Below, one piece after another: positions 3,532 to 53,550 of a DNA stretch of 64,000 nucleotides. The stretch comes from Candidatus Saccharimonadales bacterium (GTDB taxonomy: Bacteria > Patescibacteriota > Saccharimonadia > Saccharimonadales > 2-12-FULL-41-12). Position 1 is the first letter of the stretch; each line of letters starts with the position of its first letter. A program made the translations under genes and the position numbers. The notes beneath the pieces are model-generated. The model searched no databases, had not been told where the DNA came from, and saw only the letters and a program-made list of their open reading frames with translations. The stretch is taken from NCBI GenBank assembly GCA_035700225.1, contig DASSOT010000003.1:111-64110 (forward strand). The letters are read 5' to 3'.

Positions 3532-4363
3532 ATTCACTCTATATCTGGCCGGTGGCAGTCAGCTTTCGGCGGACAAAACTCTGGTCATGGGCATACTCAA
3601 CGCCACGCCGGATTCTTTCAGCGACGGCGGAGACATCGCAGACCCGGGCAGGCTGGACACGCGCATCAGGGAAATGATAAACGCCGGGGCCGATATTTTA
3701 GATATTGGCGGCGAATCTACACGGCCGGGCCATGAAAAGGTGGATGCCGGCGAGGAAACAGCCCGCGTCGTTCCCGTCATCCGGGCCATCAGGAAAATAT
3801 CGAAAACCATGCCCATCAGCGTAGATACGCAAAAAGTCGAAGTAGCCGAAGAAGCACTGCGCGCCGGAGCAAGCCTGATAAACGATGTCAGCGCCTTTTC
3901 GGATAAAAAAATGGCTGAGGTAGTCCGCAAGCATGCCTGTTCAGTAATTCTGATGCGCAACGAGCCTACCGGTTCTGATACCGTGGCTAATACCAAACAA
4001 CAGTTTGAAAGAATCATTGAAGAAGCCGAGAAACACGGAGTAGATAAGAAATATCTGCTACTGGACCCGGGGTTGGGATTCGGTGATTTGAAAACCGGCG
4101 ACTACAGCCTGTCGCCCGGTTCGGACCCGGCCGCTAATCTGGAACTGATAAGGAGTATAAGCAAATATTCGCACGGCCTGCCGGTAGTCATCGGCGCCAG
4201 CAGAAAGCGTTTCATCGGCGACATCACAGGTGAAAAGGATGTCAAAAAACGCCTCGGCGGCTCGCTCGCCGCGGCCATATTGGCCGCTCAGGCCGGCGCC
4301 GGCATCGTGCGGGTCCATGACGTAGCCGAAACCGTCCAGGCGTTCAAGATTCTCAACTGCTAG
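3524..4363 (+). CDS. folP: dihydropteroate synthase
   Basis: In-frame ATG at 3524 overlaps the folK stop (GATGAATGA). LVMGILNATPDSFSDGG, DILDIGGESTRPG and the pterin-binding fold motifs are present. About 279 aa. Confidence 0.8.
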   Translation: MNEFTLYLAGGSQLSADKTLVMGILNATPDSFSDGGDIADPGRLDTRIREMINAGADILDIGGESTRPGHEKVDAGEETARVVPVIRAIRKISKTMPISVDTQKVEVAEEALRAGASLINDVSAFSDKKMAEVVRKHACSVILMRNEPTGSDTVANTKQQFERIIEEAEKHGVDKKYLLLDPGLGFGDLKTGDYSLSPGSDPAANLELIRSISKYSHGLPVVIGASRKRFIGDITGEKDVKKRLGGSLAAAILAAQAGAGIVRVHDVAETVQAFKILNC

Positions 4364-4371
4364 GCACTAAA

Positions 4372-4520
4372 CGCCGGGTGGCCCGGCGAAGCAATGTATT
4401 TCTTTTGTACGAAAGGGTTGCAAGGAGATTTAATGGCTGGGCAAGTAGAGGCAAGAACACCAAAAAATCTCCGCCTGGAGTAAAAAGAACTATACATTCG
4501 GAGCCGGGACGGGGCCCGGC
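4372..4520 (-). repeat. MITE/REP-like structured repeat, copy B, between convergent folP and trpA
   Basis: About 149 bp. The reverse complement aligns at roughly 75-80% identity to 18553-18704, sharing the blocks ATGTATAGTTCTT, TCCAGGCGGAGATTTTT, TTAAATCTCCTTGCAACCC and AAAAGAAATACAT. It has internal and terminal inverted repeats. The spurious ORF 4378-4611 lies over it. Confidence 0.55.
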
Positions 4521-4524
4521 AGAT

Positions 4525-5256
4525 CTAGCCCAATTGCCTGATGAATTTCAGCGCGCCGTTCGCGCCGCTTTTTTCTACTTCGCGGATGACCGAACTTCCT
4601 ACCACGGCTAAGTCCGCTATCTTCAATACCCGGCTTACATCGTCTGCATTTCTGATACCGAAACCTATGGCCACCTGCTTGTCCGGCGACAATTTCCTGA
4701 TTTCCCCGCCCAGCTTGCCTAGCTCATCTGATACTAGCAACCTATTACCAGTAATACCCTTGGTACTGGTCAGATACACCAGTTCGCCGGAGTTAGCGAG
4801 CGCCCCTTTCAGCCTTTGAGCGCTTATACCGGGCGACACTACCGGCACTATCTGAAGTGATGTTTCTGCTGTAGCGCGGATCAGTTCCTTATATTCAGGA
4901 CTGTCAAAAGGAAGGTCAGGGATGATTAGCCCCTTCGCCCCTGCTCTGCCTGCACGCTTGCAGAATGTACCGATGCCGTTATGAATCAGCTTCTGCGCAT
5001 AGCTCATGATGTAGATTTCCGCTTTCAACCCTTTTCGGCGCGCCTCTTCTATCAGTTTGAAGCTGGCCTCGGTATCCATGCCTTGTGCTAAGGCCTTATC
5101 ATTGGCCTTCATGATGGTTTCGCCGTCGGCAATCGGGTCGGAAAACGGAACCTGAACCTCCATGATTCCTACGCCGGCTTTTTGCATGCCAAGTAAGAGC
5201 TCAATGCATTCTTCCCTTGACGGATAGCCCGCCACAACATGAGTCATCAGCCCCAT
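4525..5256 (-). CDS. trpA: tryptophan synthase alpha chain (N-terminally short)
   Basis: EVQVPFSDPIADGETI catalytic region and GFGI glycine-rich phosphate-binding loop. AGGAGG RBS lies 9 nt upstream of ATG 5256. It lacks the first about 18 residues of E. coli TrpA. Confidence 0.85.
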   Translation of the reverse strand: MGLMTHVVAGYPSREECIELLLGMQKAGVGIMEVQVPFSDPIADGETIMKANDKALAQGMDTEASFKLIEEARRKGLKAEIYIMSYAQKLIHNGIGTFCKRAGRAGAKGLIIPDLPFDSPEYKELIRATAETSLQIVPVVSPGISAQRLKGALANSGELVYLTSTKGITGNRLLVSDELGKLGGEIRKLSPDKQVAIGFGIRNADDVSRVLKIADLAVVGSSVIREVEKSGANGALKFIRQLG

Positions 5257-5258
5257 GA

Positions 5259-5462
5259 CTACACAGCCCTCCTTTCCAAACCCAAAGCTTTAAGAAGCCT
5301 TATGGCTAACCCGTCTAGACTGTTAAAGCAAACCAGCCCGGCAAAGTGAGTTATTTTAATTTGAAAGAGTCTGCTAGCGCTTCCCTTGAATTTCCTGCCA
5401 AAGCTGGGAAATTCATAGGTGAAAAAGCGCTCTTGAAAGTAAAATAACTCACGATTACTCAT
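5259..5462 (-). CDS. possible 67-aa small ORF translationally coupled between trpB and trpA (may be an artefact of a palindromic element)
   Basis: ATG overlaps the trpB stop (ATGAGTAA) and the stop lies 2 nt before the trpA ATG. It is F/Y-rich with no homology recognized, and it lies over a nested inverted repeat. Confidence 0.2.
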   Translation of the reverse strand: MSNRELFYFQERFFTYEFPSFGRKFKGSASRLFQIKITHFAGLVCFNSLDGLAIRLLKALGLERRAV

Positions 5463-6942
5463 AGCTTTTTAGCTCCTCTTGCAAGAACTTCTTGAACTCA
5501 TCTCGAGCGAAATTCTTCGCCAGGGTGAATAAATCCTTATCGCCCCTGCCGGATATATTTATCACGAGCTTATTGCTCGGGCGCATCTTCTTGGCACGCC
5601 TGACAGCCTCGCTTACGGCATGGGCCGACTCCAGCGCCGGGATGATTCCTTCGTTCTCCGCCAGTATTCTCACGGCGCCCAGAGTGTCTTCGTCGCTCGC
5701 GCGGACGAATTCTACCCGGCCTTCATCGGCCAGCCGGGCCAGCTCCGGCCCTATACCGATGTAATCCAGCCCGGCGGCGATACTGTGCGTCGGCGCGCTG
5801 TTGCCATCTTTGTCCTGCAAGAAATACGACCTATAGCCTTCCATTATCCCGGGTTTCGCGCCGGGAAAACGAGCGGCGTGCTCGCCTGTCTTTTTCGATT
5901 TGCCGCCGGCTTCAACACCTATGAGGCGCACTTTTTTATTGCCCAAAAATTCATAAAAAGCTCCCAGCGCGTTGCTACCGCCGCCCACGCAGGCTACTAT
6001 CGCAGTCGGGTCTTCGCCCAGTTGCACCCTTATCTCCCGGCCGATTACCGACTGAAAATCCCGGTTCATCCTGGGATAAGGGTCCGGCCCAAGACACGAG
6101 CCGATGACATAGTGCGTGTCATCGCTGTTTTGCAACCAGTCGCGGATAGCCCCGCTAACGGCGTCCTTCAGCGTCCGGGCGCCATAGCTTATAGGTACGA
6201 CTTTAGCCCCTAAAAGCTCCATCAAGATTACATTAGGTTTTTGGCGGTCTATATCAACCTCTCCCATATAAACCGTGCATTCCAATCCGAACCGGGCGGC
6301 TACGGTAGCCGTAGCCAGACCGTGCTGGCCGGCGCCGGTTTCGGCTATCAGGCGCTTCTTGCCCATTTTTTTAGCCACCAGGGCCTGGCCTAGACAATGG
6401 TTTATCTTGTGCGCCCCGGTATGGTTCAGCCCTTCGTTCTTCAGATAAATCTGCGCTCCGCCGACGGCTTTGGTGAGGTTCTTAGCAAACACCAGAGGCG
6501 TCGGACGGTTGTTGTAGCGGGTCTGCAAATCGTCCAGCTCCGCCAGGAATGCCCTGTCGGTCTTGAGCTTGTCATATGTTTTCGCCAGTTTTTCCAGCTC
6601 GCCTTGCAACATCTCCGGCACGTAGCGTCCGCCGTGCCTGCCGAAATATCCGGATTCGTTTTTTTTCGATACGGTTTGTACGGGCTCTTCGCGCAAGACC
6701 TTGAAATAATCCTTGGCCAGCAGTTTTGAACCTTTGGTAACGGTGGCTACGCCCACGCCAAGATCATCAGCTATGGCGTGGTGGTTTTCGCCACTGAGGA
6801 GCTTTTTGACTATTTCGACCCGCTTAGGCAGGTTTTCTTTGTCCTTGTCAGAGGTAATGCCGTACATGAAATCCAGAAAATCATCATACCCCCGTATGGA
6901 GTACAAAAAATCAACAAAGCCCTGAAATTTTCGGTCTTTCAT
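5455..6942 (-). CDS. trpB: tryptophan synthase beta chain with N-terminal TrpR/YerC-like HTH domain (fusion)
   Basis: Residues about 96-495 are canonical TrpB (FGRHGGRYVPEML, GAHKINH PLP-lysine region, GGGSNA). Residues 1-95 carry a Trp-repressor-family HTH (KRVEIVKKLL...LGVGVATVTKGSKLL, resembling YerC/YecD). Confidence 0.85.
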   Translation of the reverse strand: MKDRKFQGFVDFLYSIRGYDDFLDFMYGITSDKDKENLPKRVEIVKKLLSGENHHAIADDLGVGVATVTKGSKLLAKDYFKVLREEPVQTVSKKNESGYFGRHGGRYVPEMLQGELEKLAKTYDKLKTDRAFLAELDDLQTRYNNRPTPLVFAKNLTKAVGGAQIYLKNEGLNHTGAHKINHCLGQALVAKKMGKKRLIAETGAGQHGLATATVAARFGLECTVYMGEVDIDRQKPNVILMELLGAKVVPISYGARTLKDAVSGAIRDWLQNSDDTHYVIGSCLGPDPYPRMNRDFQSVIGREIRVQLGEDPTAIVACVGGGSNALGAFYEFLGNKKVRLIGVEAGGKSKKTGEHAARFPGAKPGIMEGYRSYFLQDKDGNSAPTHSIAAGLDYIGIGPELARLADEGRVEFVRASDEDTLGAVRILAENEGIIPALESAHAVSEAVRRAKKMRPSNKLVINISGRGDKDLFTLAKNFARDEFKKFLQEELKSYE

Positions 6943-6948
6943 GTATAT

Positions 6949-6966
6949 ATACTAGCATACTAGTAT
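6949..6966 (-). promoter_or_regulatory. TrpR-type operator-like palindrome ATACTAG-CATA-CTAGTAT immediately upstream of trpB
   Basis: Two CTAG half-sites 8 bp apart inside an 18-bp near-perfect palindrome, 7-24 nt upstream of the trpB ATG (6942). It matches the E. coli trp operator pattern GNACTAG-N4-CTAGTNC. Confidence 0.45.
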
Positions 6967-6983
6967 TGCATATCAAGGGGTTT

Positions 6984-7958
6984 TTAAGCAACCGCGTGCA
7001 GTACTACTTCGACGTCTTCGAGTAACTTATCAGCTGATTGGTATCGGTCCGCCGGGTCCTTCTGGGTAGCCCTTTCTATCATGCTGATTACCGCAGGTGG
7101 TATATCCTTGCCATCCGGCACCGTGAAATCAATCTCTGCTTCTTTGTGCAGTTGGGCCAAGCGCCGTTCCCTCTGCTCCTTCGGCGATATCACCGCATCG
7201 TACGCGCTAGATTCCAGAGAACGCGGCTTCACATTCCTGGGCGTTTCCACCTGGAACGGAACCCTGCCGTAAAAGAGCTCGTATGCCGTTATGCCCAGAT
7301 TATAAAAGTCGCTCGTTATATCCACCCTCTGGTTATTAGCCTGCTCCGGCGACATGTATTCTGCCGAGCAAACGACCCTGCCCGAGGTATGCGGACGGCC
7401 GAATTTCAGCATGCGCTCGCGGGCTTCGTTGTGCTCCGTAGAACCGCCGAGCATCCGGCCGGAGTCAAGAAGATGCCCGTACGGTCGTGGCATGGCCGCG
7501 CCGAAATCTATAAGCGCTGATCGGCCCGTCCTCTGGGCGATTATGTTATCCGGTTTGATATCACCGTGTACAAAACCCTCGCCATGCACATACCCCAGCG
7601 GGCCGGCAACGGAACTGATAATTTTGGCGGCGGCCTCTGAGCCTTTGGTTGTCAAGGCCACGTTCATGCTCGGCATACCTGCCTCTCTCGTCATGATGAA
7701 ATACGGGTCTTCCTCGCCGGTGTGGTCCTCAATCAAGTCCGGTATCTGCGGATGGTCCAGTGCACCGAGTATTTTGGCTTCCGCCGTCAAAACTTCTTTT
7801 TGCAGAACAGTTGCGTCGGCTGGCACGCCTTTTATGACTGCCGGCGGTTTCAGCTCGGTTCCGGCGGTAACGAAAGTAGTCGCCATATTAGAGGTGATTC
7901 TTTCTTTGATTTCCCCGTAGCGTCCGGCCTCATGGGCCGGTAGAGCAAAACCGTTCAT
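6984..7958 (-). CDS. eukaryotic-like Ser/Thr protein kinase (cytoplasmic, no sensor domain)
   Basis: HGDIKPDNII catalytic loop, DFG motif, SPEQ (APE-like) activation segment and AVIK lysine-strand equivalent. The Gly-rich loop is degenerate. Confidence 0.6.
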   Translation of the reverse strand: MNGFALPAHEAGRYGEIKERITSNMATTFVTAGTELKPPAVIKGVPADATVLQKEVLTAEAKILGALDHPQIPDLIEDHTGEEDPYFIMTREAGMPSMNVALTTKGSEAAAKIISSVAGPLGYVHGEGFVHGDIKPDNIIAQRTGRSALIDFGAAMPRPYGHLLDSGRMLGGSTEHNEARERMLKFGRPHTSGRVVCSAEYMSPEQANNQRVDITSDFYNLGITAYELFYGRVPFQVETPRNVKPRSLESSAYDAVISPKEQRERRLAQLHKEAEIDFTVPDGKDIPPAVISMIERATQKDPADRYQSADKLLEDVEVVLHAVA

Positions 7959-18858: not shown

Positions 18859-19746
18859 TTAGTATTCGAGGGCTTTTTTGACCCGTTCTACGGATTCGTC
18901 CGGGTGGTTATCGTCAAACCAAAGCACATGCCAGCCCTGTTTGGCCGCTTCCATCAGGTTCGGCCGTGAATCATCCACGAGCAGAAGCGCCTCTTTAGGC
19001 ACGCCGGCTTCTTTGGCGGCAACTTTGTAGATTTCCGGCTCCGGCTTGATAAAGCCCGTCTGGGAAGAGTCTATGATGATGTCGTAAGGTATGTCTGGAA
19101 GCAGGCTTTTGCTGAACATGGATTTTATCAGTCCGGGCATGTTGTTGCTGAGCAACCCTACACGGTAGTGTTGCTGAACCCATTTGATAAGCTCGATGGT
19201 TTCGTTTATCGGCTCGACCGCTTCCAGATAGAAAGCCTGCCAGTCCACGCCCGGAACAGAGAATTTCTCCGCCAGAAGCTCGTTGAAATCATGCACGGAT
19301 ATGTCACCCTTGCAGACCAGATCGTTGTACTGCCAGAAGGTCGTTTCTATCAATTCCATCGGCACGCCGGATTCTTCAGCGATAAGGCTGAACGTCCTGT
19401 GAAAGAAGCGGACCATACTGCCGTTGATGTCGAAATACACGAACTCAACACCGCTTTTCGAGCGTTTCTTGGCCTTTTGCGGGCCTGCGGCACCGGCCGG
19501 CGCCTGCTTGCCCAACAGGCTTTCCACGGACACGTTAAGCGCTTCTGCGATGGTCTGGATGGTAAATACCGAAGGAGCTTTGATGGCCCCGCGCTCTATC
19601 TTGGCCAGCGTAGAATAGCTCAGATTTGAAATCTGGCAGAGCTGTTGCTGGGTATAGCCGGCTGTCTTGCGCGCAGTCTGTATACGTTTAGCCAAACCCT
19701 TTTCCATATCGGCTGTTGCCGCCAAAGTGCTCACCCCCCTTAGCAA
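18859..19746 (-). CDS. XRE-family HTH domain fused to HAD-superfamily hydrolase
   Basis: N-terminus has a Cro/C1-type HTH (QQQLCQISNLSYSTLAKIERG). C-terminus has HAD motifs (LLSNNMPG...; LLLVDDSRPNLMEA). Confidence 0.6.
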   Translation of the reverse strand: MLRGVSTLAATADMEKGLAKRIQTARKTAGYTQQQLCQISNLSYSTLAKIERGAIKAPSVFTIQTIAEALNVSVESLLGKQAPAGAAGPQKAKKRSKSGVEFVYFDINGSMVRFFHRTFSLIAEESGVPMELIETTFWQYNDLVCKGDISVHDFNELLAEKFSVPGVDWQAFYLEAVEPINETIELIKWVQQHYRVGLLSNNMPGLIKSMFSKSLLPDIPYDIIIDSSQTGFIKPEPEIYKVAAKEAGVPKEALLLVDDSRPNLMEAAKQGWHVLWFDDNHPDESVERVKKALEY

Positions 19747-20050: not shown

Positions 20051-21067
20051 GTGGACGCAAAAAAAATATTCAGAGGAATCGCGCTGTACCTGCTGGGAAC
20101 TTTCCTTTTCTTTGTGCTTTTTGGTTTCGCGTACTTCCTGGCCTTCACCCAGATGGCCGGTAATCCGGACAGGGTCAAACAGGCGCTTTATAACAGCGGG
20201 CTTTATGAAAAGGCCGGCCCGGTACTATACGATAATTTCCAGGAATCCGAGGGTAGCAAGGGGCCGGAACAAGACATACCGCTCAAAGACCCCATAGTCC
20301 GCCAGGCGGTGCTTTCCGCTTTCAGCCCGTCCTTCATCCAAAAAAGCGTAGAAAACGTCATAGACGGCACATACGGCTGGCTCAACGGTGACACCGCGCA
20401 ACCGGAATTCTCGATAAACCTCGCCGAAGCGCAGAAGAACTTTTCCCAGACTTTGGGCGACGAGATTACCGAGCGGCTGAAAAAACTACCGCGCTGTAGC
20501 GCCGAACAGGTGCAGAAAGCTAAAAAGACCGACCCGTTCTCCATAAGATGCCTGCCTCCGGGAGTTTCTATAAAATCATTGCGAAAACAGGTGGTCAAAG
20601 AGGCAGAGGGCGGCGACGTACTGGAAAAGAAAAAGATAACCGCCTCGGACCTGAAATCAAAGGACGGCGGAGGAACCTTCTCTGACTCCTCAGCCCCAAG
20701 CGCCTACCGAACAGCGCTGAAAGTGCCGTATATCCTGCTGGTTTTGGGCGTCCTTCTCGGGACGGGGCTTGTTTACGCCAGCAGTAGCAGAAAAAACGGG
20801 CTGAAAAGGCTTGGTAAGATATTGGCGATAGCGGCTGTCTTCGCATTATTCGTACCGATAGCATTCAATATACTGTTTAGCATTTTGCTAAAAGCCGATA
20901 CGGGAGATAATATTATCACTGACCTGGCCGTACCTGTCATCCGGGAGTTCAACAAAGCAGGAAGCAAGTTTTACTACATAACCGGGGCAGGGTACGCGCT
21001 ACTGGCGGTCGGAGCGTTCTATCTGGCTAAAAGACTGCCCGCAGAGGGAGATAAGAGGAAGAAATAA
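20051..21067 (+). CDS. membrane protein, hypothetical
   Basis: 338 aa; N-terminal TM (LYLLGTFLFFVLFGFAYFLAF), a soluble middle region, and two C-terminal TM helices. Confidence 0.45.
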   Translation: MDAKKIFRGIALYLLGTFLFFVLFGFAYFLAFTQMAGNPDRVKQALYNSGLYEKAGPVLYDNFQESEGSKGPEQDIPLKDPIVRQAVLSAFSPSFIQKSVENVIDGTYGWLNGDTAQPEFSINLAEAQKNFSQTLGDEITERLKKLPRCSAEQVQKAKKTDPFSIRCLPPGVSIKSLRKQVVKEAEGGDVLEKKKITASDLKSKDGGGTFSDSSAPSAYRTALKVPYILLVLGVLLGTGLVYASSSRKNGLKRLGKILAIAAVFALFVPIAFNILFSILLKADTGDNIITDLAVPVIREFNKAGSKFYYITGAGYALLAVGAFYLAKRLPAEGDKRKK

Positions 21068-21071: not shown

Positions 21072-22139
21072 ATGGAATACACACTGCAGAATGGACCTGA
21101 CGGCAAAGCTACGAGAGTAGTGATAGGCGGCTCCGCCTTTAATGAGCTGAAGAAACTGGCGGAAGGACATACCAAGATCGCGTTGATAACCGACAAACAA
21201 ACCGATAAGCACTGCTTCAAAAAGCTACATCCCTATCTGCCCACAGCGGAAAAGATAATCCTGCCGGACGGCGAAGCGATTAAGAGCCTGGCCCGCGTAG
21301 AAGATACACTCAAGCACCTACGGGAATCAGGATTTGACCGCAAGAGTCTGATAATAGGCTTGGGCGGAGGAGTGGTGAACGACCTGGCCGGGTTCTGCGC
21401 CAGCACTTACATGCGGGGTATTGATTGGGTGATGATTCCCAGTACGCTGACAGCGCAGGCTGACGCTTCCATCGGCGGAAAAACAGGTGTGAACCTGGGC
21501 GGTTACAAGAATATGGTCGGCAGTTTCTGGCCGTCCAGAGCCGTGCTGATAAATCCTGTCCTGCTTGAAACTTTACCCAAGGAGCATCTGATGAACGGAC
21601 TGGCTGAAATCATCAAGATGGGCTTCATCTACGACCCACAGATTCTCGAGCACGTAAGTCGGCTCGACCCTGCTAAACTTTTGGGCGACGATCTGGACAC
21701 GGCCTCGCGCCTGGCCGCCAGAGGGAAGATTGAGATAGTTAACACCGACCCTTATGAGGCCGGGGGGAGAAAACTGCTTAATTTCGGCCATACGGTGGGG
21801 CATGCGCTGGAGGCGATTTCAATGGACGGTGACAAGCCCCTGCTACACGGCGAAGCTATATCCATAGGCATGGCCGCCGAAACCAAACTGGCGGAGCTGG
21901 AAAGCGTCTGCGCGCCTGGTCTGAGCGCCAAGGTCAAACAAACGCTGAAGCGTTTCGGCCTGCCGGTCGCATACCCTCACGCATCGCTTGAAGACATACT
22001 CGGCAAGATAACTTCGGACAAGAAGAATGTCGGCGGCGCCATCCGCTGGACCTTGCCGGAAAACGAAGGCCGGGGCGTTTACGACCACGAGGCGGACGAA
22101 GAAAACATAAAGACGGCCATAGGCTCGATATTGTCTTGA
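21072..22139 (+). CDS. aroB: 3-dehydroquinate synthase
   Basis: GGGVVNDLAGF NAD-binding loop, metal-binding histidines (HTVGHALE...HGEAISIG) and DHQS-family length. Confidence 0.85.
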   Translation: MEYTLQNGPDGKATRVVIGGSAFNELKKLAEGHTKIALITDKQTDKHCFKKLHPYLPTAEKIILPDGEAIKSLARVEDTLKHLRESGFDRKSLIIGLGGGVVNDLAGFCASTYMRGIDWVMIPSTLTAQADASIGGKTGVNLGGYKNMVGSFWPSRAVLINPVLLETLPKEHLMNGLAEIIKMGFIYDPQILEHVSRLDPAKLLGDDLDTASRLAARGKIEIVNTDPYEAGGRKLLNFGHTVGHALEAISMDGDKPLLHGEAISIGMAAETKLAELESVCAPGLSAKVKQTLKRFGLPVAYPHASLEDILGKITSDKKNVGGAIRWTLPENEGRGVYDHEADEENIKTAIGSILS

Positions 22140-31753: not shown

Positions 31754-32380
31754 CTAATCTCTACTGTGTATCACCACTAATTTTCGATTTCCTAAATCTA
31801 TTTCGGCCATATCTGAAATCATTTCATTGCTTATGCCGGTATTTCCTTGTAGCGAAAGGGTGTATTTTGCCAAATCATATTTCAGGCCGCTGGAAAATTC
31901 AGCCTTAACATCACCGAAAACCGGTATGAAAGATATGGCGTCGCCTTTTTTGCCCCTGATGATAACTTTACCCGTTATCATATAAATTTCCTGGTTTCCT
32001 TCGATAATCTTCAGCTTTATGCCAACAAAATCCTGCTTATTCAACAGGTATATGTTGCCTAGCATATGGTCGACCCGTCTCCCCAGCAGGGCGACCAGGA
32101 TTACTTCGCCGGCCCCCTGTTTAATGGCATAGCGGATAGCGGCCTCGGAATCCGTATAGTCCTTATCCTCGGGATGCTCGATGATTTCTATGTCTTCGCG
32201 AAGTAGGCTTTTGTCAAAGGAGTCGAAATCGCCGACTATCGCGTACGGTTTATAGCCCAAAGCGGTTATGTGTTTCGAACCTCCGTCGCAACCGATGAGC
32301 AGAGTTTTGCTGTCGATATAGCTTTTTATATGGGTTAAATCAGCACAGTCGCCATTAAGGAAAATCACCGCCCTATTCAT
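31754..32380 (-). CDS. thiamine pyrophosphokinase
   Basis: AIVGDFDS motif, catalytic Asp cluster, and C-terminal thiamine-binding half. Last gene of the thiamine-salvage operon. Confidence 0.7.
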   Translation of the reverse strand: MNRAVIFLNGDCADLTHIKSYIDSKTLLIGCDGGSKHITALGYKPYAIVGDFDSFDKSLLREDIEIIEHPEDKDYTDSEAAIRYAIKQGAGEVILVALLGRRVDHMLGNIYLLNKQDFVGIKLKIIEGNQEIYMITGKVIIRGKKGDAISFIPVFGDVKAEFSSGLKYDLAKYTLSLQGNTGISNEMISDMAEIDLGNRKLVVIHSRD

Positions 32381-33870: not shown

Positions 33871-34896
33871 CTATGGCAGGAATTCGTTAGTGAACAGCGA
33901 GCTGAAATCAAGCGTGCTTACAGGTTTGCCGGAAGAGTCCGTAACGGTACCTTTGTCCAGCATGAACTGCGGATATTTGCGCCAATATGCCGGATCCTGC
34001 ACGCCCCAGGCCTTGCCATCATCCTGATATAGAGGGCTCAGGTAGCCCTGGCTGTCGTATACCAATGATTCATCCGGAAAAGTACCAGGCTGTGTGTTCT
34101 TAATAAGCAGTTTTGCCGACTCTTCAGGGTGGCTTCGGGCGTATTCATACCCTTTTGCCGTAGCGGCCATGAATTTCTTTAGCGCGTCATGCTTGTTTTT
34201 GATTGTTTCAGGCGAAGATATGATGTTGGGCGTAGAATAATCAGGTATGCCCCAGTCCTGGAGCGTAAAAGTCTTGAGCTGTAAACCTTCGTGTTTGGCT
34301 TGGATACCTTCCCAGCCGTTGAAAACCCAGGCGAAATCAATGCTTTTATCCTTGAGCGCCTGCAAGGGGGAAGTATTCACGGTAACCGTCTTGAAATCGC
34401 CACTGCCGCCGGCATTTTTGATAACTTGTCCCATCACGGCTTTTTCATAAGGCGCGCCAAACCCGCCGAAAGTTTTGCCGTCCAGCTGGGCGGGCGAGGT
34501 TATCCCGGAATCTTTGCGCACAGCTATAACAGAGGTGTTATGGGCTATTATCGAGGCTATGGAAACCACGTCTGAGCCGACTGCCGCATCGGATACTATG
34601 TATTCAGTGAATCCTATTCCGGTATCTGCTTTGCCGGTAGCGACAAGCACGTCGGATGAAGCGCTGTCGGAATAGGGGAGTATTTTCAAGTCAATCCCCT
34701 GGTCCTTATACCAGCCCTTGGCTTGGGCCACATATATGCCGGTGTGGTTCGTGTTCGGCGTCCAGTCCAATGCCAATGATATCGGCGTCAAATCCTTAGA
34801 CTGTTCCCGGCCATTGCTACCGGCCTTCTGCCAAAAAGCCCATCCGGCTACGGCTATTAGCACCGCTAGCAGTGCTATGTAAATATTTTTTTTCAT
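33871..34896 (-). CDS. NMT1/THI5-like substrate-binding protein (probable HMP/thiamine-precursor binding, ThiY-like)
   Basis: ORF track starts at 34917, but AAGGGAG RBS precedes ATG 34896 (MKKNIYIALLAVLIAVAGWA signal peptide). The upstream ATG lies inside the TPP riboswitch. Periplasmic-binding fold. Confidence 0.65.
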   Translation of the reverse strand: MKKNIYIALLAVLIAVAGWAFWQKAGSNGREQSKDLTPISLALDWTPNTNHTGIYVAQAKGWYKDQGIDLKILPYSDSASSDVLVATGKADTGIGFTEYIVSDAAVGSDVVSIASIIAHNTSVIAVRKDSGITSPAQLDGKTFGGFGAPYEKAVMGQVIKNAGGSGDFKTVTVNTSPLQALKDKSIDFAWVFNGWEGIQAKHEGLQLKTFTLQDWGIPDYSTPNIISSPETIKNKHDALKKFMAATAKGYEYARSHPEESAKLLIKNTQPGTFPDESLVYDSQGYLSPLYQDDGKAWGVQDPAYWRKYPQFMLDKGTVTDSSGKPVSTLDFSSLFTNEFLP

Positions 34897-34995
34897 CTGT
34901 TCTCCCTTCGACGGCATTACCCGTACAGGTTCAGAGGGTCACCTAGATAAAAGCTAGGACTCTCAGCCCGGCTGCCCCCGAGCTCCCCTTGAATC
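34897..34995 (-). promoter_or_regulatory. TPP (THI-box) riboswitch in the 5' leader of the thiamine ABC/TPK operon
   Basis: Minus-strand read: GGGGAGCUCGGGGGCAGCCGGG-CUGAGA-GUCC...GACCCUCUGAACCUGUACGGGUAAUGCCGUCGAAGGGAGAACAG-AUG. This matches the conserved CUGAGA, ACCC..GAACCUG, GGUAAUGCC and GAAGGGA elements of the THI element. Confidence 0.8.
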
Positions 34996-35027
34996 GTTTA
35001 TTTTACGCGGATATTGTAACATGCGCC

Positions 35028-36416: not shown

Positions 36417-36872
36417 TTAGCTTCCGGGGTTCACTTTGGACAGGACGAATTTGACTATAAGCTGGGCGAAGGCGACTATAACCAGGCCGATGATGGCATA
36501 AAGGATAGTGTTGCGGGCAGACTTGGTGTTTTCAGGGTTGCCGCCGGAAGTCACATAGCGGAAACCGGCATAGATAATCATGATTACCGCCAGTACTCCG
36601 ACTATTACCGAGAAGATATTGAGGGCATCCGCAAGCAACTTATCAATCCCTTTCTCCGGATCGGTGCTGTTGGTTTGATGGCCTTCGGCATCTTTATTAC
36701 AACCCTGGGCTTTGTCGTCAAAGGTGAGATTAGCCCCGCCGCAAATCTTGTGGATGGTGTCTTCCTGCGCCGAAACAGCGGGGGACAGCAAAAGAAAAAC
36801 TGCAAAAAGCGCTGACAATATAAGACCGAGTCTGGTGAGCGGGTTGAGGACTGGAGCTGATTGCATATTCAT
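36417..36872 (-). CDS. VirB2/TrbC-like T4SS pilin paralog 1
   Basis: Sec signal peptide, Cys-containing variable ectodomain, then conserved C-terminal double-TM anchor IFSVIVGVLAVIMIIYAGFRYVTSGGNPENTKSARNTILYAIIGLVIVAFAQLIVKFVL. Confidence 0.6.
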   Translation of the reverse strand: MNMQSAPVLNPLTRLGLILSALFAVFLLLSPAVSAQEDTIHKICGGANLTFDDKAQGCNKDAEGHQTNSTDPEKGIDKLLADALNIFSVIVGVLAVIMIIYAGFRYVTSGGNPENTKSARNTILYAIIGLVIVAFAQLIVKFVLSKVNPGS

Positions 36873-36880
36873 AATGTTAT

Positions 36881-37318
36881 CTAGGCTATCTTGCTTAATA
36901 CAAATTTTACTATCACCTGGGCAAAAGCGACTATTAACAAGCCGACCAGGGCATAAATAATGGCGTTCCTGGCGGCTTTCGTGTTCTCCGGGTTGCCGCC
37001 GGAGGTTACCATCCGGAAACCGCCGTAGATTATCATGATTACGGATATGATTCCTACGATTATCGAAATTATATCCACGACATTGTTTATCAATCTAGTT
37101 ATCTTGGACTCAGCCGCTACATTGACGGGGTTCCCGTGTTCGTCGGTTTCATGCACCTGGCACTGCCCGTCGGCTCCTGTGAACTGAAAATCTGCTCCGG
37201 TACAGAGCTGTCCTACGCCCGCGGCCGATGTTTTCGGCGCCATCATCAGGGCGAACGCCAACAATAGGCCGGATAACAGCAATGTAATCTTTTTGAGGCT
37301 GATAGTTTGTGTAAACAT
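36881..37318 (-). CDS. VirB2/TrbC-like T4SS pilin paralog 2
   Basis: Same architecture; C-terminus IISIIVGIISVIMIIYGGFRMVTSGGNPENTKAARNAIIYALVGLLIVAFAQVIVKFVLSKIA. Confidence 0.6.
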   Translation of the reverse strand: MFTQTISLKKITLLLSGLLLAFALMMAPKTSAAGVGQLCTGADFQFTGADGQCQVHETDEHGNPVNVAAESKITRLINNVVDIISIIVGIISVIMIIYGGFRMVTSGGNPENTKAARNAIIYALVGLLIVAFAQVIVKFVLSKIA

Positions 37319-37335
37319 ATTTTTATCTTATAGGT

Positions 37336-37764
37336 TTATGAGTTGCCCGTAGCTTTGGCCAGGACGAATTTGACGATGAATTGCGCTAATGCCACTATCA
37401 CCAGACCGATTATGGCGTATAGGATGGTGTTTTTCGCGGTAGATATATTGCCGGATTCGCCGCCGGAAGTCACATAACGGAAACCGCCGTAGATTATCAT
37501 AATCACACAGACTACACCGACGATTACGGAGAAGATATTGATGACTCTTGCGACAAGAGTGTTCGCATTATCACCGGCATCCGCCGTCGAGGTCTTACAT
37601 GTGTTTGAGCTTGCATCGTCGGCCAGGTTCAAATCCGCGCCCTGGCAAGTAGAGTCAGTAATCAGGGGCGTATCAGCCGCCATAGCTACGGCAGGGACTC
37701 CGCCGAGTATCAACAAAAGCCCGGCGCTGGTGACAGCTATCAATCTTTTTATTTTGTTTATCAT
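37336..37764 (-). CDS. VirB2/TrbC-like T4SS pilin paralog 3
   Basis: C-terminus IFSVIVGVVCVIMIIYGGFRYVTSGGESGNISTAKNTILYAIIGLVIVALAQFIVKFVLAK; N-terminal signal peptide. Confidence 0.6.
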   Translation of the reverse strand: MINKIKRLIAVTSAGLLLILGGVPAVAMAADTPLITDSTCQGADLNLADDASSNTCKTSTADAGDNANTLVARVINIFSVIVGVVCVIMIIYGGFRYVTSGGESGNISTAKNTILYAIIGLVIVALAQFIVKFVLAKATGNS

Positions 37765-37802
37765 TTCTTTTTTCCTTTCGCTAAACGCTTTATCTTTAGC
37801 CT

Positions 37803-38267
37803 TTACGATCCTGTGGCCTTGGACAGGACGAACTTAACGATGAATTGCGCTAATGCTACAATTACTAGTCCTACAATAGCATATAATATCGTATTTTTGG
37901 CAGAAGAAACATTACCGGAATCCCCGCCGGAAGTCACATAACGGAAACCGCCGACGATTATCATTATCACGGCGACTACGCCGACTACCACGGAGAATAA
38001 ATTCACTATCGTTGCTATCAAGTCATTAAGTTTGTTTTCCGGTTCGTTGCCGGTGAAAGCACAGGCATCAGGCGAAACCTGGCCGGTAGGGAATTTCAGC
38101 TCCGCGCCCTGGCAGGTTGAAGCTTGTATGTTGGGGGTTTCCTGCTGAGGATCAGCCTGCGGCTGTTGGGCCGCAACCAAGCCCCCTGCGCCGAAAAAAA
38201 CCGCGAACATAGCCAGGCTGGCGATGAGATATGTGCTTCTTTGTAATGTTCTTCTGATTATTTCCAT
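37803..38267 (-). CDS. VirB2/TrbC-like T4SS pilin paralog 4
   Basis: C-terminus LFSVVVGVVAVIMIIVGGFRYVTSGGDSGNVSSAKNTILYAIVGLVIVALAQFIVKFVLSK. Confidence 0.6.
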   Translation of the reverse strand: MEIIRRTLQRSTYLIASLAMFAVFFGAGGLVAAQQPQADPQQETPNIQASTCQGAELKFPTGQVSPDACAFTGNEPENKLNDLIATIVNLFSVVVGVVAVIMIIVGGFRYVTSGGDSGNVSSAKNTILYAIVGLVIVALAQFIVKFVLSKATGS

Positions 38268-38293
38268 GAATCGTCCTGATTTAACTATTTTCT

Positions 38294-38322
38294 ATCATAT
38301 AACGCGCACATTATTGTCACAA
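38294..38322 (-). promoter_or_regulatory. candidate internal promoter (TTGTGA-N17-TATGAT) between pilin paralogs 5 and 4
   Basis: Minus-strand read of the 65-bp spacer gives TTGTGA then a 17-nt spacer then TATGAT. It is the only sizeable gap inside the nine-gene array. Confidence 0.3.
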
Positions 38323-38332
38323 TGAATTTTCC

Positions 38333-38743
38333 CTAGGCTATCTTGGTTAACACAAGCTTGACTATTATCTGAGCGAAGCCGACGATAATCAAACCGACCA
38401 AGGCATAGATAAAGGTATTCCTAGCTGAGGTAATCTGGTTTGAGTCTCCTGCCGCTGTAACGAATCGGATGCCGCTGATAATAATCATGATTACACATAT
38501 CAGGCCGACGATTATCGTCAGCAGATTTATTACCTTGTCCACCGTACCGCCAAGCCCTTGACTGCTTGTCTTCAGCTTGTCCTGGTCACAATGGCCGCTT
38601 CCATCCCCTACGCCAACAGTGACGCAAGCTTCATCCTTAGCTCCGCTGTATAAGGCGTGCGCACTGCCGCCAAAAAAGGGAAGGGCCAAGCCCAAGGAGA
38701 GAACGGTTAGAAGCGCGATATTTTTTAATTTTTGAACAATCAT
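38333..38743 (-). CDS. VirB2/TrbC-like T4SS pilin paralog 5
   Basis: C-terminus LLTIIVGLICVIMIIISGIRFVTAAGDSNQITSARNTFIYALVGLIIVGFAQIIVKLVLTKIA. Confidence 0.55.
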   Translation of the reverse strand: MIVQKLKNIALLTVLSLGLALPFFGGSAHALYSGAKDEACVTVGVGDGSGHCDQDKLKTSSQGLGGTVDKVINLLTIIVGLICVIMIIISGIRFVTAAGDSNQITSARNTFIYALVGLIIVGFAQIIVKLVLTKIA

Positions 38744-46521: not shown

Positions 46522-47526
46522 ATGGCAACATACAAAGTAATCCAGGACATAGAGGCCGAAGATAAGTTCGTAGGCCCGCTGACGCTGAAACAATTCGTTT
46601 TTGCTATGTTCGGCGCGCTTTTTGCATATCTGTCGTTCTTCGTACTTACCAAAGGCCTGGCATGGGGTCTAATAGCCACTATGCCGCCTTCTCTTTTCGG
46701 ATTTTTCATGGCCGTGCCGTGGAGTAGTGAACAACCTACGGATATATGGGTGCTGGCAAAGATACGTTTCAGACTGAAACCAAAAAAACGCATCTGGGAC
46801 CAAAGCGGCATGCAGGAGCTTGTGACCATAACCGCCCCCAAGAAGGAAGAAAAGCCCCTGACCAAAAATATGTCGCAGGCCGAAGTAAAAAGCCGGCTGA
46901 AGGCACTGGCCGAAACGATTGACAGTCGAGGCTGGATTATCAAGGATTCCCCGGATAGTTTCGTGGCCGAAGAAGCTAGCGACCGCTTGATAGACCCGGG
47001 CATAATGCCGAGGCAGGTGCCTGACGTTGATATGGCCGCCATACCGGATATGCTTGAGGAAGAGCACGGTCTGGACAGCATGATTCAGCAGAGCGATGAG
47101 GCCAGAAAAGCCCAACTTATGGAAAAGATGAACCGTATCAGGCAGGGCGAGTCCGTAATTGCCACCGAGGAGCCGGAGCCCGTCGTTTCCCCGCCTGACG
47201 AAAACACTGAAAACGCGCTTGATGAAGCGGTTTTGAGCGCCAGCCTGAGAGCAAAGAAGCAGGCCGGAGATATATCAAGAGGCAACATGCATGCCATACC
47301 GGCCAGCCAGCCAGTAGCGCAGACAAGCCAGCCTGCGGGACAGGATGAAGGTGCAGAGGAAGCGGAGCAAACAGAGGTAGAAAAAGCACAAGCGTCTGTG
47401 ACAGAACAGAGAAGGCCTGATATACTGGACTTAGCCCGGAACAACGATCTGAACGTATCAACTATTGCGAGGCAAGCCAGCAATAAAGACAAAGGTCCGG
47501 ATGAAGTCGTTATTGCCCTTCACTAG
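46522..47526 (+). CDS. PrgI/VirB3-like two-TM T4SS protein with acidic C-terminal extension
   Basis: N-terminus IQDIEAEDKFVGPLTLKQFVFAMFGALFAYLSFFVL...GLIATMPPSLFGFFMAV gives two TM helices. Position is immediately upstream of VirB4, as in Gram-positive conjugation systems (PrgI, ConD). Confidence 0.5.
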   Translation: MATYKVIQDIEAEDKFVGPLTLKQFVFAMFGALFAYLSFFVLTKGLAWGLIATMPPSLFGFFMAVPWSSEQPTDIWVLAKIRFRLKPKKRIWDQSGMQELVTITAPKKEEKPLTKNMSQAEVKSRLKALAETIDSRGWIIKDSPDSFVAEEASDRLIDPGIMPRQVPDVDMAAIPDMLEEEHGLDSMIQQSDEARKAQLMEKMNRIRQGESVIATEEPEPVVSPPDENTENALDEAVLSASLRAKKQAGDISRGNMHAIPASQPVAQTSQPAGQDEGAEEAEQTEVEKAQASVTEQRRPDILDLARNNDLNVSTIARQASNKDKGPDEVVIALH

Positions 47527-47571
47527 GCCGGCTTCGCTTGAAAGATCAAAACATGAAAAGGGTGGAAAAGG

Positions 47572-48444
47572 ATGAATCCTTCCCAGCAAAATGCTAACGC
47601 TCAACCGAATATAAATTTACAGACACCCCAGCATTCAGGCGCTGAGGTTGTGCAGAATGCCCAGCCCGCGAACCCCGCCCAGCCCGCAGGACAGATTCCG
47701 GCAAAACCGGCAGTAAATACCAACAGCACCCAGAACAACCTTCAGATAGCCGAGATACGCGACGGTATAGTTATCATGAACGACGGTTCTTTCCGTTCCG
47801 TGGTCATGTTCAAGTCCATCAACTTTGATCTTATGAGCCCCGACGAGCGCGAAGGGGTCGAATATGCATACCAAAGCTTCTTGAACTCGCTTTATTTTCC
47901 TATACAGATATTCGTCCGTTCCGAAAAAGTCGACATGAGGCCGTACATGGAAAGATTACAGAAGATTCAGAACGAACATGACAACATGCTCCTGGCTATC
48001 CTGATGGACGATTACCTCGGTTATATAGAACAATTGTCGGCTCAGACCAACATAATGGACAAGCATTTCTATGTCGTCATACCCTTTTTGCCCAGCGAAT
48101 CCAAGGAACATACGCTTACATCCAGCAAAAATATATTGGATGGAGTGATAGGGCTTTTCAGCAAATCTCCGACACATGTGGTCATCAACGAAGCCAAGCT
48201 GGAAGAAGCCAAGACTGAACTGCGCAACCGAGTCCAGGCTGTGTTGAGCGGTCTGCTTGACTGCGGAGTTCAGGGCTTGCCGCTGGACACGGAAGAGCTT
48301 ATCGAGCTTTATTACGACACCTATAACCCCGACACGGCCACCAGACAACATCTGCAAAGGTTCAAGGATCTTTCTGCGCCGGTAGTAACCAAGGGCGAAG
48401 GGCAGGCGCCACAGCCCGACCTGGATAAGGAGCTCGAAACGTAG
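47572..48444 (+). CDS. VirB4 N-terminal domain encoded as a separate ORF
   Basis: IRDGIVIMNDGSFRSVVMFKSINFDLMSPDEREGVEYAYQSFLNSLYFPIQIFVRSEKVD matches the conserved N-terminal domain pattern of VirB4/TrbE/ConE. Its stop overlaps the next ORF start (TAGTG). Confidence 0.6.
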   Translation: MNPSQQNANAQPNINLQTPQHSGAEVVQNAQPANPAQPAGQIPAKPAVNTNSTQNNLQIAEIRDGIVIMNDGSFRSVVMFKSINFDLMSPDEREGVEYAYQSFLNSLYFPIQIFVRSEKVDMRPYMERLQKIQNEHDNMLLAILMDDYLGYIEQLSAQTNIMDKHFYVVIPFLPSESKEHTLTSSKNILDGVIGLFSKSPTHVVINEAKLEEAKTELRNRVQAVLSGLLDCGVQGLPLDTEELIELYYDTYNPDTATRQHLQRFKDLSAPVVTKGEGQAPQPDLDKELET

Positions 48445-50357: not shown

Positions 50358-50385
50358 ACATTAGCAAAAACTGAAAGAACAAAAA

Positions 50386-53300: not shown

Positions 53301-53550
53301 CTATCATCATCTCGGCAAAGCGGCTGACTTTAACTATATCGATGGTGTTTTCATGGGGCCTAGTGACTCGGCCTGGACGGGCGAAAAGCTCAGCGTAGGC
53401 AAGAAACTTGACCAAGATGTGGCGTCCTTTATGCCTAAGAGTACCGGCTTTGGCCAGGAAGGTGGCAGATGCCACCCACATTTTAATTTCCTGGACGGCT
53501 TCGACACCTTTGACGACGCCTGCCACCATCAACACATACAAGTGGAGTAG
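50386..53550 (+). CDS. 1054-aa bitopic protein: disordered cytoplasmic N-terminus, single TM, large extracytoplasmic region ending in an M15/LAS-type zinc metallopeptidase (cell-wall hydrolase) domain
   Basis: TM GMTAGGVVGLVFFLFSLA at about aa 170. C-terminal SYHHLGKAADF (SxHxxGxAxD) plus a downstream HPH (HxH) zinc-ligand pair typical of VanY/M15 peptidases. Confidence 0.6.
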   Translation: MADDPAEKPDGVYDEPGASDLQVPSGSGYMPRGEKPRRTPHEPVYEDDSDGQVAQAGMGPPGQGGDEHGGRRRLGSPSWADRMRQRRSMANRRQGRGHGRSRGDINNSEENAEEPAPTRADDKERSQVGDGGGEEDKGSSLYNPTDAALPANVRIAKQLAKAFMSKKGRRGMTAGGVVGLVFFLFSLAHGPLEIIHIGMLLQKAHFSNQEGVGDLTMSRLYRFIRSGGDVGETRIGWYESRVKNKMLADLKKIGLEPEFTSASSIYESFKVDTTDSKSPYYNMTEDELRTELSKKGYDFDGTSEVSKGKYSVKLGNDFTRRKSLTLLVKETGRKGLFASLKARPLKKYGWVDWHPIHPLDRKVNDSIDKLYKNWKQKRAEKRAGRGKPATIDSTNAKEQTVDADGNTVDNPIADGSVQTVDDTSKSAQLIQDLKTSSGLKITGGVAAAAGVACAVKEINDNYSLIQYLDFIKPVIQIGMDAVTIANQAMSGVGGIDLLQAGFVARDFLQKDKDTGKVVSSWDEAKTFRAGEGKKGGKDLDKRTKEEFSKGAPWWINWTGKDPAKGVLKPLCSTAGTIATGAISVGIDVITGHSVSTLANLVGSYFAGPVIIDKISHLLVGDALDLDNVAGATWGNLANYGTRFAANGMALLDGGVKLTHLDEIALNNERLQDEQQEFNNRSFAYRMFNPYDTRSLASAVIDDTPALSMNNLSSVFQSFPSLFSSAFKFPSGLLSGTVSAQRFTAPPYDYPFPSIGFSIEDRDNSKVIDPIENDHKVAKILDNNGEGGNPDYIERAKECFNVDIKKESAGGWNATPGENDDEFFSKLYTDEYPDGCTDKSLEWIRVRSFILQVQTMKAYACWADDEEACAELGYNDSSVTGGGSPGVLPSGSAQALAGQLIGFINSGKISCNGQASDCPDIKNTANGTSIKGGACNVDALDAKLLGMMLELAQMGHTFVFSALCTDHPSNPASYHHLGKAADFNYIDGVFMGPSDSAWTGEKLSVGKKLDQDVASFMPKSTGFGQEGGRCHPHFNFLDGFDTFDDACHHQHIQVE

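Follow-up and report, generated by a model that had tools for sequence, protein, structure and literature searches.

The window analysed here, a stretch of 64,000 nucleotides from a Candidatus Saccharimonadales bacterium (assembly GCA_035700225.1, contig DASSOT010000003.1), contains a gene, trpR::trpB, in which a DNA-binding domain of the Trp repressor (TrpR) type is joined in one open reading frame (ORF) to the beta subunit of tryptophan synthase (TrpB), downstream of a TrpR-type operator and upstream of trpA. An initial annotation had placed this gene at 5455-6990 and had given no strand; it lies on the minus strand and runs from 6942 to 5455. The coding features of the locus are the following.

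6942..5455, minus strand: trpR::trpB ORF of 495 codons, with its ATG at 6942 and its stop at 5455
6691..6942, minus strand: TrpR-type repressor domain, residues 1-84, recognized by PF01371, a PDB profile match to E. coli TrpR, its predicted fold and a low nonsynonymous divergence (pN)
6718-6762, minus strand: helix-turn-helix (HTH) of the TrpR domain, residues 61-75, reading LGVGVATVTKGSKLL
6652..6690, minus strand: linker, residues 85-97 (about 13 residues), rich in Lys, Glu and Pro and variable in length and sequence across 40 homologues, with a predicted local distance difference test score (pLDDT) below 50
5455..6651, minus strand: canonical TrpB domain, residues 98-495 plus the stop codon (TIGR00263)
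4525..5256, minus strand: trpA, 243 residues, with a Shine-Dalgarno sequence, GGAGG, at 5268-5272, 11 nucleotides before its ATG

The trpR::trpB gene and its product

Residues 98-476 of the fused protein correspond to canonical TrpB (540.8 bits to NCBIfam TIGR00263, against an equivalog cut-off of 392.45), Pfam PALP (PF00291) covers residues 144-465, and the score to the TrpB2-type model TIGR01415 falls far under its cut-off; the pyridoxal phosphate (PLP)-lysine motif, HTGAHKINH, is unchanged across 39 fused homologues. The downstream gene is called as trpA by PF00290 (9.5e-57) and TIGR00262 (169 bits, cut-off 102), keeps the TrpA catalytic motif E-x-x-V-PFSDP-I-ADG, and is separated from trpR::trpB by a gap of 198 nucleotides. 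Only 41 nucleotides of intergenic DNA separate trpR::trpB from the Ser/Thr kinase gene upstream of it, whose end is at 6984, and the order groES-groEL-(kinase)-trpR::trpB-trpA-folP-folK is syntenic among the fused loci. The gene product is a genuine two-domain protein, composed of a TrpR-type domain, a floppy linker and a complete TrpB enzyme, and a single chain here joins an enzyme to a DNA-binding-type domain, as in the class of bifunctional enzyme-repressors. An exact-sequence look-up of the window protein returned no record.

The amino-terminal region had been described initially as a TrpR/YerC-like domain. A hidden Markov model (HMM) search matched residues 6-76 to Pfam PF01371 (Trp_repressor; E=2e-7, 31.4 bits, cut-off 27), and a profile search of PDB with the domain and its relatives returned E. 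coli TrpR chains as the best matches (E=2e-11), with structures of the HisR/YerC type weaker (3g1c at 3e-7, 3frw at 1e-4 and 3kor at 2e-3). An AlphaFold2 model of the domain predicted six helices (pLDDT 84-92 for residues 21-80) and, beyond them, a disordered tail, and in a Foldseek comparison of that model with PDB the top matches were all E. coli TrpR (probability 1.00, template modelling (TM) score 0.62-0.70, root-mean-square deviation 2.5-2.8 Å), with YerC-like proteins ranked below them; the model of the full-length protein, built on a shallow alignment, is informative solely for the disordered linker and was kept out of the fold search. The distinction between TrpR and YerC matters because YerC is now recognized as HisR, a histidine repressor with a different motif, TTTA-N6-TAAA (PMC9413887). 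An NCBIfam scan of the fused protein gave no match to the YerC-type model TIGR02531, and a YerC/HisR identity was rejected because TrpR structures score better, the operator is of the CTAG type and the context is trpB-trpA; the TrpR-type identity and the fusion itself, the latter recurring in the homologues described below, therefore stand, and the YerC half of the initial description falls.

The fusion is real. A full-length search, drawing on NCBI, JGI, ENA and Logan assemblies of Saccharimonadales metagenomes, found at least 40 distinct clusters at 90% identity, comprising proteins of 485-529 residues that all carry both PF01371 and PF00291 and are 73-99% identical, and the fusion is present in four GTDB species representatives, so that its phylogenetic distribution, which the initial annotation had left to be checked, lies in Saccharimonadales. 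In all of the fused homologues the frame continues unbroken from the TrpR domain, through a linker of variable length, to the TrpB motif GYFGxYGGRYVPE; named records of such proteins read ‘tryptophan synthase subunit beta [Candidatus Saccharimonadales bacterium]’ (for example, HEX5797422.1 and HEX5798458.1). Nonsynonymous (pN) and synonymous (pS) divergence between fused genes is distributed by region as follows.

TrpR domain: pN 0.09-0.11 among the four closest fused genes, the window gene and L008-L010, and 0.34 at most in comparisons with L011 and L209, which are outliers
TrpB: pN 0.10-0.15 between fused genes
Linker: pN 0.43-0.78, approaching pS
All regions: pS saturated, at 0.7-0.9

By these values the constraint on the repressor domain equals that on the enzyme, and the linker evolves almost neutrally, a pattern that indicates purifying selection on both fused domains.

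Two relatives are broken: in L001 a single G-to-T substitution has produced a TAA in place of the Glu codon of GGRYVPE, followed by an ATG (6328-6333), and splits the fusion into 109 and 367 residues, and in L006 (1060-1410) trpB carries several frameshifts that look like errors of an error-prone assembly. Both are pseudogenes or assembly errors and exceptions in the family. A word-indexed search with the N-domain, which gave four matches, had indicated that the relatives of this domain are all short; that view was rejected, since P0001 and P0002 are broken fused genes and the full-length query found the family. The N-domain relatives returned by a search of 50%-identity representatives are nearly all of 80-120 residues, and because the fused proteins are probably hidden inside TrpB clusters, this census is no measure of rarity.

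The operator, its distribution and the residues that face it

On the coding strand the 41-nucleotide intergenic region and start codon include TTGATA-tgca-ATACTAG-TATG-CTAGTAT-atatac-ATG, within which the following features were located.

6971..6976, minus strand: -35 hexamer TTGATA, from a scan for sigma-70-like promoters
6949..6966, minus strand: TrpR-type operator ATACTAG-TATG-CTAGTAT, an 18-base-pair palindrome with two CTAG cores 4 base pairs apart, corresponding to ATACT half-sites in an 8-base-pair register
6949..6957, minus strand: extended -10, TGcTAGTAT, inside the operator, with the TG at 6957-6956 and the hexamer TAGTAT at 6954-6949
6940..6942, minus strand: ATG start codon, 6 nucleotides past the -10 hexamer and lacking a Shine-Dalgarno sequence

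The operator reads ATACTAGTATGCTAGTAT on the coding strand (window 6966..6949) and lies 7-24 nucleotides upstream of the A of the ATG, precisely where the initial annotation had put it. Over 4300-7200 the promoter scan found a single sigma-70-like site on either strand, consisting of TTGATA, a 16-nucleotide spacer, TAGTAT and the TG of an extended -10; from its position it follows that the operator fills the spacer and -10 of the trpR::trpB promoter, and the overlap with a -10 that had been suspected initially is thereby located in the right arm of the palindrome. The mRNA is probably leaderless, given that the -10 ends 6 nucleotides from the ATG and that no Shine-Dalgarno sequence intervenes, whereas trpA has its GGAGG. 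In E. coli (NC_000913.3) the trp promoter is TTGACA-N17-TTAACT, with the operator AACTAGTTAACTAGTAC lying across it, and its CTAG cores are likewise 4 base pairs apart, as had been asserted.

CTAG is rare in the window (61 copies against 199 +/- 13 in shuffled sequences, an approximately 3.3-fold under-representation), and a shuffled window would contain, on average, 0.08 copies of ATACTAGNNNNCTAGTAT when as many as two mismatches are allowed. The perfect copy of the operator is unique in the window; further sites, which the initial annotation had envisaged across the genome, are represented in the window scan by one match with two mismatches and a poor right arm inside trpA (4731-4748, plus strand, ATACTAGCAACCTATTAC), which is probably due to chance, and in metagenome contigs by the copies described below.

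The identical 18-mer precedes 11 independent fused genes (L001, L006, L008, L009, L010, L011, L133, L210/211, L212 and L213), at which the flanking DNA diverges and synonymous sites are saturated; the palindrome, whose absence from fused orthologues had been named initially as grounds for doubt, is therefore widely retained by them, with one degenerate case (L209) that is weighed below. At L213, a gene caller had placed the start of the ORF at an ATG within the palindrome. A scan of GTDB genomes with an alignment of the TrpR domain returned 80 loci, mostly from Saccharimonadales and other Patescibacteria. Most of these carry, about 21 nucleotides before the ATG, either [A/G]TACTAG-N4-CTAGTA[T/C] or three CTAGs with an 8-base-pair period, the latter arrangement occurring at several loci, and most of the unfused trpR genes examined are among those that have the motif. 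A TTGACA-like box lies upstream of the operator, at the same distance as the -35 of the window, in most related loci; with few exceptions, the 4 nucleotides between the operator arms end in TG in Saccharimonadales, and more distant proteobacterial homologues have one GTACTAGTAC each. These patterns fit the GNACT half-site and 8-base-pair register of TrpR (PMC9413887) and the tandem binding of PDB entry 1TRR.

In a reverse search, the exact 18-mer was found at 120 or more loci in metagenome contigs, and an HMM search of both sides placed a TrpR-like ORF within 700 nucleotides of it at 58 of the 120 loci listed. About a dozen copies, of high GC content, flank GntR/FCD regulators, one sits upstream of an unfused trpB, and the remainder fall in low-complexity repeats or larger palindromes or are unexplained. 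The 18-mer is therefore strongly but not exclusively tied to TrpR.

Several further arrangements were observed around these sites. Eleven loci with a guanine-plus-cytosine (GC) content of 0.59-0.66 (L096, L105, L114, L129, L145, L147, L152, L154, L163, L170 and L171) carry an exact, promoter-like ATACTAGTATGCTAGTAT beside genes with GntR and FCD domains (FadR subfamily), so that an unrelated repressor family appears to use the same sequence. A large AT-rich class of metagenome loci (for example, L092, L098, L109, L115, L121 and L150) has CTGTGGATA about 45 nucleotides past the 18-mer, which on the opposite strand is the DnaA-box-like TTATCCACAG, and a TTGCTT/TTGACT box between 18-mer and CTGTGGATA; at these loci the TrpR-like ORF begins directly after the palindrome, on the strand whose spacer reads CATA. 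Standalone trpR genes that are preceded by the operator and followed by no trp biosynthesis genes occur in many Patescibacteria (L013-L016, L021, L025, L029, L046, L049, L051 and others). One recurrent set of neighbours of such genes comprises a 275-residue protein with no Pfam match, a luciferase-like oxidoreductase and a 100-residue protein; others include a protein of the Asp/Glu racemase family, DUF3182 together with an AstE/AspA-like protein, and a class I tRNA synthetase of the Trp/Tyr type.

The DNA contacts of E. coli TrpR are made by R69, I79, A80, T81, T83 and R84 (PMC9413887), and the corresponding residues of the window protein are H55, V65, A66, T67, T69 and K70, of which three are identical and two conservative, with R69 replaced by His. 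Within the TrpR domain, conservation is highest in the recognition helix, and L61-G62-V63-G64, A66, T67 and T69 do not vary. Among the 119 TrpR loci at which a site could be recognised, whose lineages are not independent, an Arg at the position of E. coli residue 69 accompanies an outer operator base of the GTAC type in 18 of 20 sites, and a His or Gln accompanies the ATAC/GTAT type in 65 of 68, a covariation that would be expected if this HTH reads this site and that supports such a role. In the effector pocket, the equivalents of E. coli Arg54 (R41, invariant in all relatives), Gly85 (G71) and Thr81 are kept, that of Thr44 is S31 (either Ser or Thr among relatives), and those of Arg84 and Ser88 have changed to K70 and L74. 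Lys and Leu occur at these two positions in none of the standalone or TrpC-fused TrpRs, which have Arg and Glu.

A proposed autoregulatory circuit and its alternatives

TrpR and TrpB are both dimers in their known forms, and for that reason two fused chains would be expected to pair. The TrpR dimer of the fusion would then bind the ATACTAG-N4-CTAGTAT operator and, because that operator takes up the spacer, extended -10 and -10 hexamer of the promoter from which the fusion itself is transcribed, its binding would exclude RNA polymerase and repress trpB-trpA. The corepressor would be L-tryptophan, the product of the fused enzyme itself, so that the circuit would amount to product-controlled negative autoregulation. 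Taken as a whole, a self-repressing enzyme with L-tryptophan as its corepressor is judged likely, on a reading of the sequence from which dimerization, DNA binding and the identity of the corepressor are all predicted. Its parts are not equally secure: repression by the enzyme of its own gene is very probable, a claim in which confidence is higher than in the reading overall, and L-tryptophan as the signal is put at only a little better than even, a lower standing that reflects the changes at Lys70 and Leu74.

A number of points weigh against this reading. The case is built from comparisons of sequence and from predictions, and the model of the full-length fusion has low confidence (mean pLDDT 68) and is monomeric, which bears on the fit between a TrpR dimer and a beta2 dimer. 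The N-domain clearly matches NCBIfam TIGR01321, the TrpR equivalog, but its 40.7 bits fall under the cut-off of 67.25, and by the NCBI rule it is a divergent TrpR-type protein and not a strict TrpR equivalog. If the repressor domain is borne by an abundant enzyme, there would be far more copies of it than of its one operator, a ratio that bears on how control could be graded. The R84-to-K70 and S88-to-L74 pair is found in 39 of 40 fused TrpB proteins, and given this signature in the pocket the effector, or its affinity, may differ. In L209, which is basal among the fused forms and has Arg at the equivalent of position 84, the left operator arm is degenerate (ATATCAG), and approximately 12 of the metagenome 18-mer loci, of high GC content, adjoin GntR/FCD regulators instead of TrpR, with others lacking an obvious partner. 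Finally, at the syntenic locus L208 (GCA_035628555.1, DASPJO010000039.1; 1184-1400), where an unfused trpB of 403 residues encodes a TrpB that is 81% identical, neither a TrpR domain nor a CTAG palindrome was found, and regulation is dispensable there.

The pocket signature bears most directly on a circuit in which the fusion represses itself in response to a signal other than free L-tryptophan, whether indole, serine, a tryptophan analogue, or the catalytic state of the enzyme or its association with TrpA (as for BirA and PutA). The Lys/Leu pair at E. coli positions 84 and 88 is exclusive to TrpR::TrpB fusions, the standalone and TrpC-fused forms having R/E, and engineered E. coli TrpR variants that bind indole-3-acetic acid (as described by the titles of their PDB entries) carry substitutions at T44, T81, N87 and S88, from which it follows that position 88 affects the choice of ligand; indole would moreover be the logical signal if the genome truly is without trpC-E, none of which was seen among the 54 of 60 window ORFs that were scanned. 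However, the equivalents of Arg54, Gly85 and Thr81 and a Thr44-like Ser/Thr are retained, Lys for Arg is a conservative change, and the sequence indicates no specific alternative ligand, while tight allostery between the domains is disfavoured by the disordered and variable linker. An altered signal of this kind is considered unlikely, if far from negligible. Much the same modest probability is accorded to a more specific form of the idea, in which Lys70 and Leu74 would mark a retuned sensor, and DNA binding would report on the output or substrate state of TrpB (local tryptophan, indole or alpha2-beta2 assembly), as in a trigger enzyme derived from TrpR.

A TrpR domain that is inactive on DNA, and that instead serves in feedback by tryptophan, in oligomerization or in solubility, would leave the palindrome as a promoter element or as the site of another regulator, for instance one of the GntR type. 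Such a view could draw on an extended -10 that coincides with the right arm and with the spacer's TG, on the same 18-mer beside GntR/FCD regulators in unrelated high-GC contigs, and on the functioning of a close lineage (L208) that has no TrpR domain. Yet ATACTAG, the left arm, falls within the promoter spacer, for which no particular sequence is needed, and is nonetheless invariant in 11 fused loci despite saturated synonymous sites; conservation in the domain peaks at the recognition helix, the residue at the Arg69 position covaries with the outer base of the operator, and no GntR gene is present among the 54 of 60 window ORFs that were scanned. This alternative is regarded as very improbable. 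The joining of separate trpR and trpB genes by an assembly or frameshift error, or in a pseudogene, is effectively refuted: the broken state of L001 and L006 might have suggested it, but the breaks of L006 look specific to its assembly and that of L001 is a single substitution, and they stand against the intact full-length fused ORFs, at least 40 in number, from independent samples and assemblers, with a continuous frame through a linker of variable length and purifying selection on both domains.

Evolution, known systems and the remainder of the window

Unfused relatives of the locus are organized as trpR-trpC-trpB-trpA operons with overlapping stops and starts, and encode a TrpR that is 46-56% identical. 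A rough neighbour-joining tree of TrpB domains places 41 fused proteins in one clade of 49, with 8 unfused proteins nested among them, and sets 33 operon-type TrpBs apart; the fusion therefore probably arose once in a Saccharimonadales clade, and the nesting of L208 within the fused clade suggests a secondary loss of the repressor domain. Plausibly, the fusion arose through loss of trpC from a trpR-trpC-trpB-trpA operon, with later and occasional loss of the TrpR domain. No second match to the TrpR pattern was found in the four GTDB assemblies that have the fusion. Fusions of TrpR to TrpC (indole-3-glycerol-phosphate synthase, IGPS) were also observed, at L042 (3020-4129), L047 (5992-7095) and P0014; these are proteins of 367-369 residues, followed by trpB-trpA, and their loci carry three CTAGs with an 8-base-pair period that extend to the start codon.

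TrpR and its operator are a textbook case of ligand-activated repression, and the TrpR of past studies is a free protein, approximately 100 residues long. The closest known system is E. coli TrpR with the trp, trpR and aroH operators, which shares with the window the protein family, the fold and a CTAG-N4-CTAG operator placed over a core promoter; E. coli TrpR autoregulates its own gene, as is proposed for the window fusion, and the tandem three-CTAG arrays of relatives of the window are consistent with its tandem mode of binding (PDB 1TRR). The two differ in that the 108-residue TrpR of E. coli is free and the TrpR of the window is covalently joined to TrpB, in the half-site and its reader (ATACT and His, against GNACT and Arg69), in the pocket (Lys/Leu, against Arg84/Ser88) and in the placement of the -10, which lies in the right operator arm in the window and at the centre of the operator in E. 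coli. In further contrast to E. coli trp, the window mRNA is probably leaderless, and neither a leader peptide nor an attenuator is present. The unfused trpR-trpC-trpB-trpA operons of Saccharimonadales share the layout of operator and promoter and the downstream trpB-trpA, but keep trpC; in the TrpB-fused clade there is no trpC at the locus and positions 84/88 are Lys/Leu, whereas the unfused and TrpR::TrpC relatives have Arg/Glu.

The closest gene arrangement is that of Chlamydia trpR-trpB-trpA, which has the same order and is found in an organism that has a reduced genome, depends on a host and is without the early pathway. In Chlamydia trachomatis trpRBA, TrpR represses from a promoter upstream of trpR (PMC7755916, PMC6504234); there, however, trpR is a separate ORF (PMC7755916), followed by an intergenic second promoter and a YtgR operator, whereas the window has one polypeptide and its only gap is that between trpB and trpA. 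HisR (YerC/YecD) shares with the window domain the family PF01371, the form of a small HTH repressor and a palindromic operator of about 20 base pairs, and is often autoregulated (PMC9413887). It differs in its effector, histidine, in its TTTA-N6-TAAA motif and in having Tyr at the Arg69 position.

BirA, PutA and NadR combine an enzyme and a DNA-binding domain in one chain and repress genes of the same pathway, and the corepressor of BirA is made in the enzyme's own active site, to which tryptophan would be analogous in the window fusion. Their domains are nonetheless unrelated to those described here, being of the winged-helix, ribbon-helix-helix and HTH_3 types and joined to a ligase, a dehydrogenase and an adenylyltransferase, respectively; none has TrpR or a PLP fold-type II enzyme, and their coupling is experimentally established, whereas that of the window is proposed from sequence. 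Neither a TrpR-TrpB fusion nor a TrpR of Patescibacteria is described in the literature that was searched, which takes in a minority of subscription journals, and nor are promoter, operator or leaderless-start features for Saccharimonadales. The fusion would be a variant of the classic TrpR circuit; its sequences are public but annotated solely as TrpB.

In this fusion, which belongs to uncultured, ultra-small Saccharimonadales (TM7) bacteria whose very small genomes encode few regulators, a textbook module shares one chain with the enzyme whose product is its presumed corepressor. If the proposed circuit holds, it would represent a new class of self-regulating ‘trigger enzyme’ and a natural system in which to follow the interplay of repressor dose, product channelling and negative autoregulation; it would also supply predicted promoter, operator and probable leaderless-start features for Saccharimonadales and, for biosensors based on TrpR, a natural specificity pair (Arg69 to His with G to A) and a Lys84/Leu88 pocket variant. 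Should the domain instead be a retuned sensor, then together with the TrpR::TrpC fusions it would point to a general route in Patescibacteria by which regulators are merged into the enzymes they control.

The pathway context of the locus was surveyed with Pfam. The window has 60 ORFs of at least 90 residues, and among the 54 of them that were scanned none of trpC, D, E, F or G was found; the initial remark that trpEDCF is missing thus holds for those ORFs and is not extendable to the whole genome. A trpBA-only, Chlamydia-like lifestyle of indole salvage is a plausible extrapolation from 64 kb; TrpA keeps its catalytic motif, and reliance on salvage alone is no more than plausible. A homologue of 3-dehydroquinate synthase (21072-22139, plus strand) lies beside a 338-residue ORF with no Pfam match (20051-21067, plus strand), and no other genes of the shikimate or aromatic pathway were seen in the window.

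The gap between trpB and trpA contains one further feature.

5346..5452, minus strand: long imperfect hairpin-forming element of about 105 nucleotides, with a predicted fold of -61.9 kcal/mol (z = -2.55)

This element is identical at 58 of 60 positions to its counterpart in L010 (7490-7610), whose coding DNA is 62-85% identical with synonymous sites saturated; nowhere else in the locus is DNA conserved so strongly between the window and L010. The other fused loci lack the element or cannot be aligned with it: the closer relatives L210 and L212 have an unrelated gap, and L008, L009, L011 and L213 have none. An Rfam scan of the gap gave no match at gathering or E-value thresholds, and a 67-codon ORF (5259-5462) overlaps the hairpin. 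A multi-copy miniature inverted-repeat transposable element was considered and found unsupported, as no second copy occurs in the window or in 208 other loci; the hairpin may represent a mobile insertion, an RNA element or a small protein.

Elsewhere in the window, a second fusion of an HTH to an enzyme is encoded at 18859-19746 (minus strand), in a 295-residue protein that combines an XRE-type HTH_3 domain (residues 22-75) with a hydrolase of the HAD family. A thiamin pyrophosphate (TPP) riboswitch at 34887-34999 (minus strand; 58.2 bits, above gathering) is followed by genes for an NMT1/THI5-like binding protein, an ABC ATPase, a permease and thiamin pyrophosphokinase (33871-34917 to 31754-32380), a set that looks like an operon for the salvage of thiamin precursors. 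The regions 36417-38743 (minus strand) and 46522-55913 (plus strand) hold five tandem paralogues of a type IV secretion pilin (T4SS_pilin/TrbC) and a nearby cluster with PrgI, a TraG-type P-loop ATPase and a 786-residue protein that has a phage-tail-lysozyme domain. At the far end, dnaA, dnaN, a RecF-like ATPase gene and yidC (58080-61926, minus strand, and 62910-63821, plus strand) indicate that the window adjoins the presumed origin of replication.

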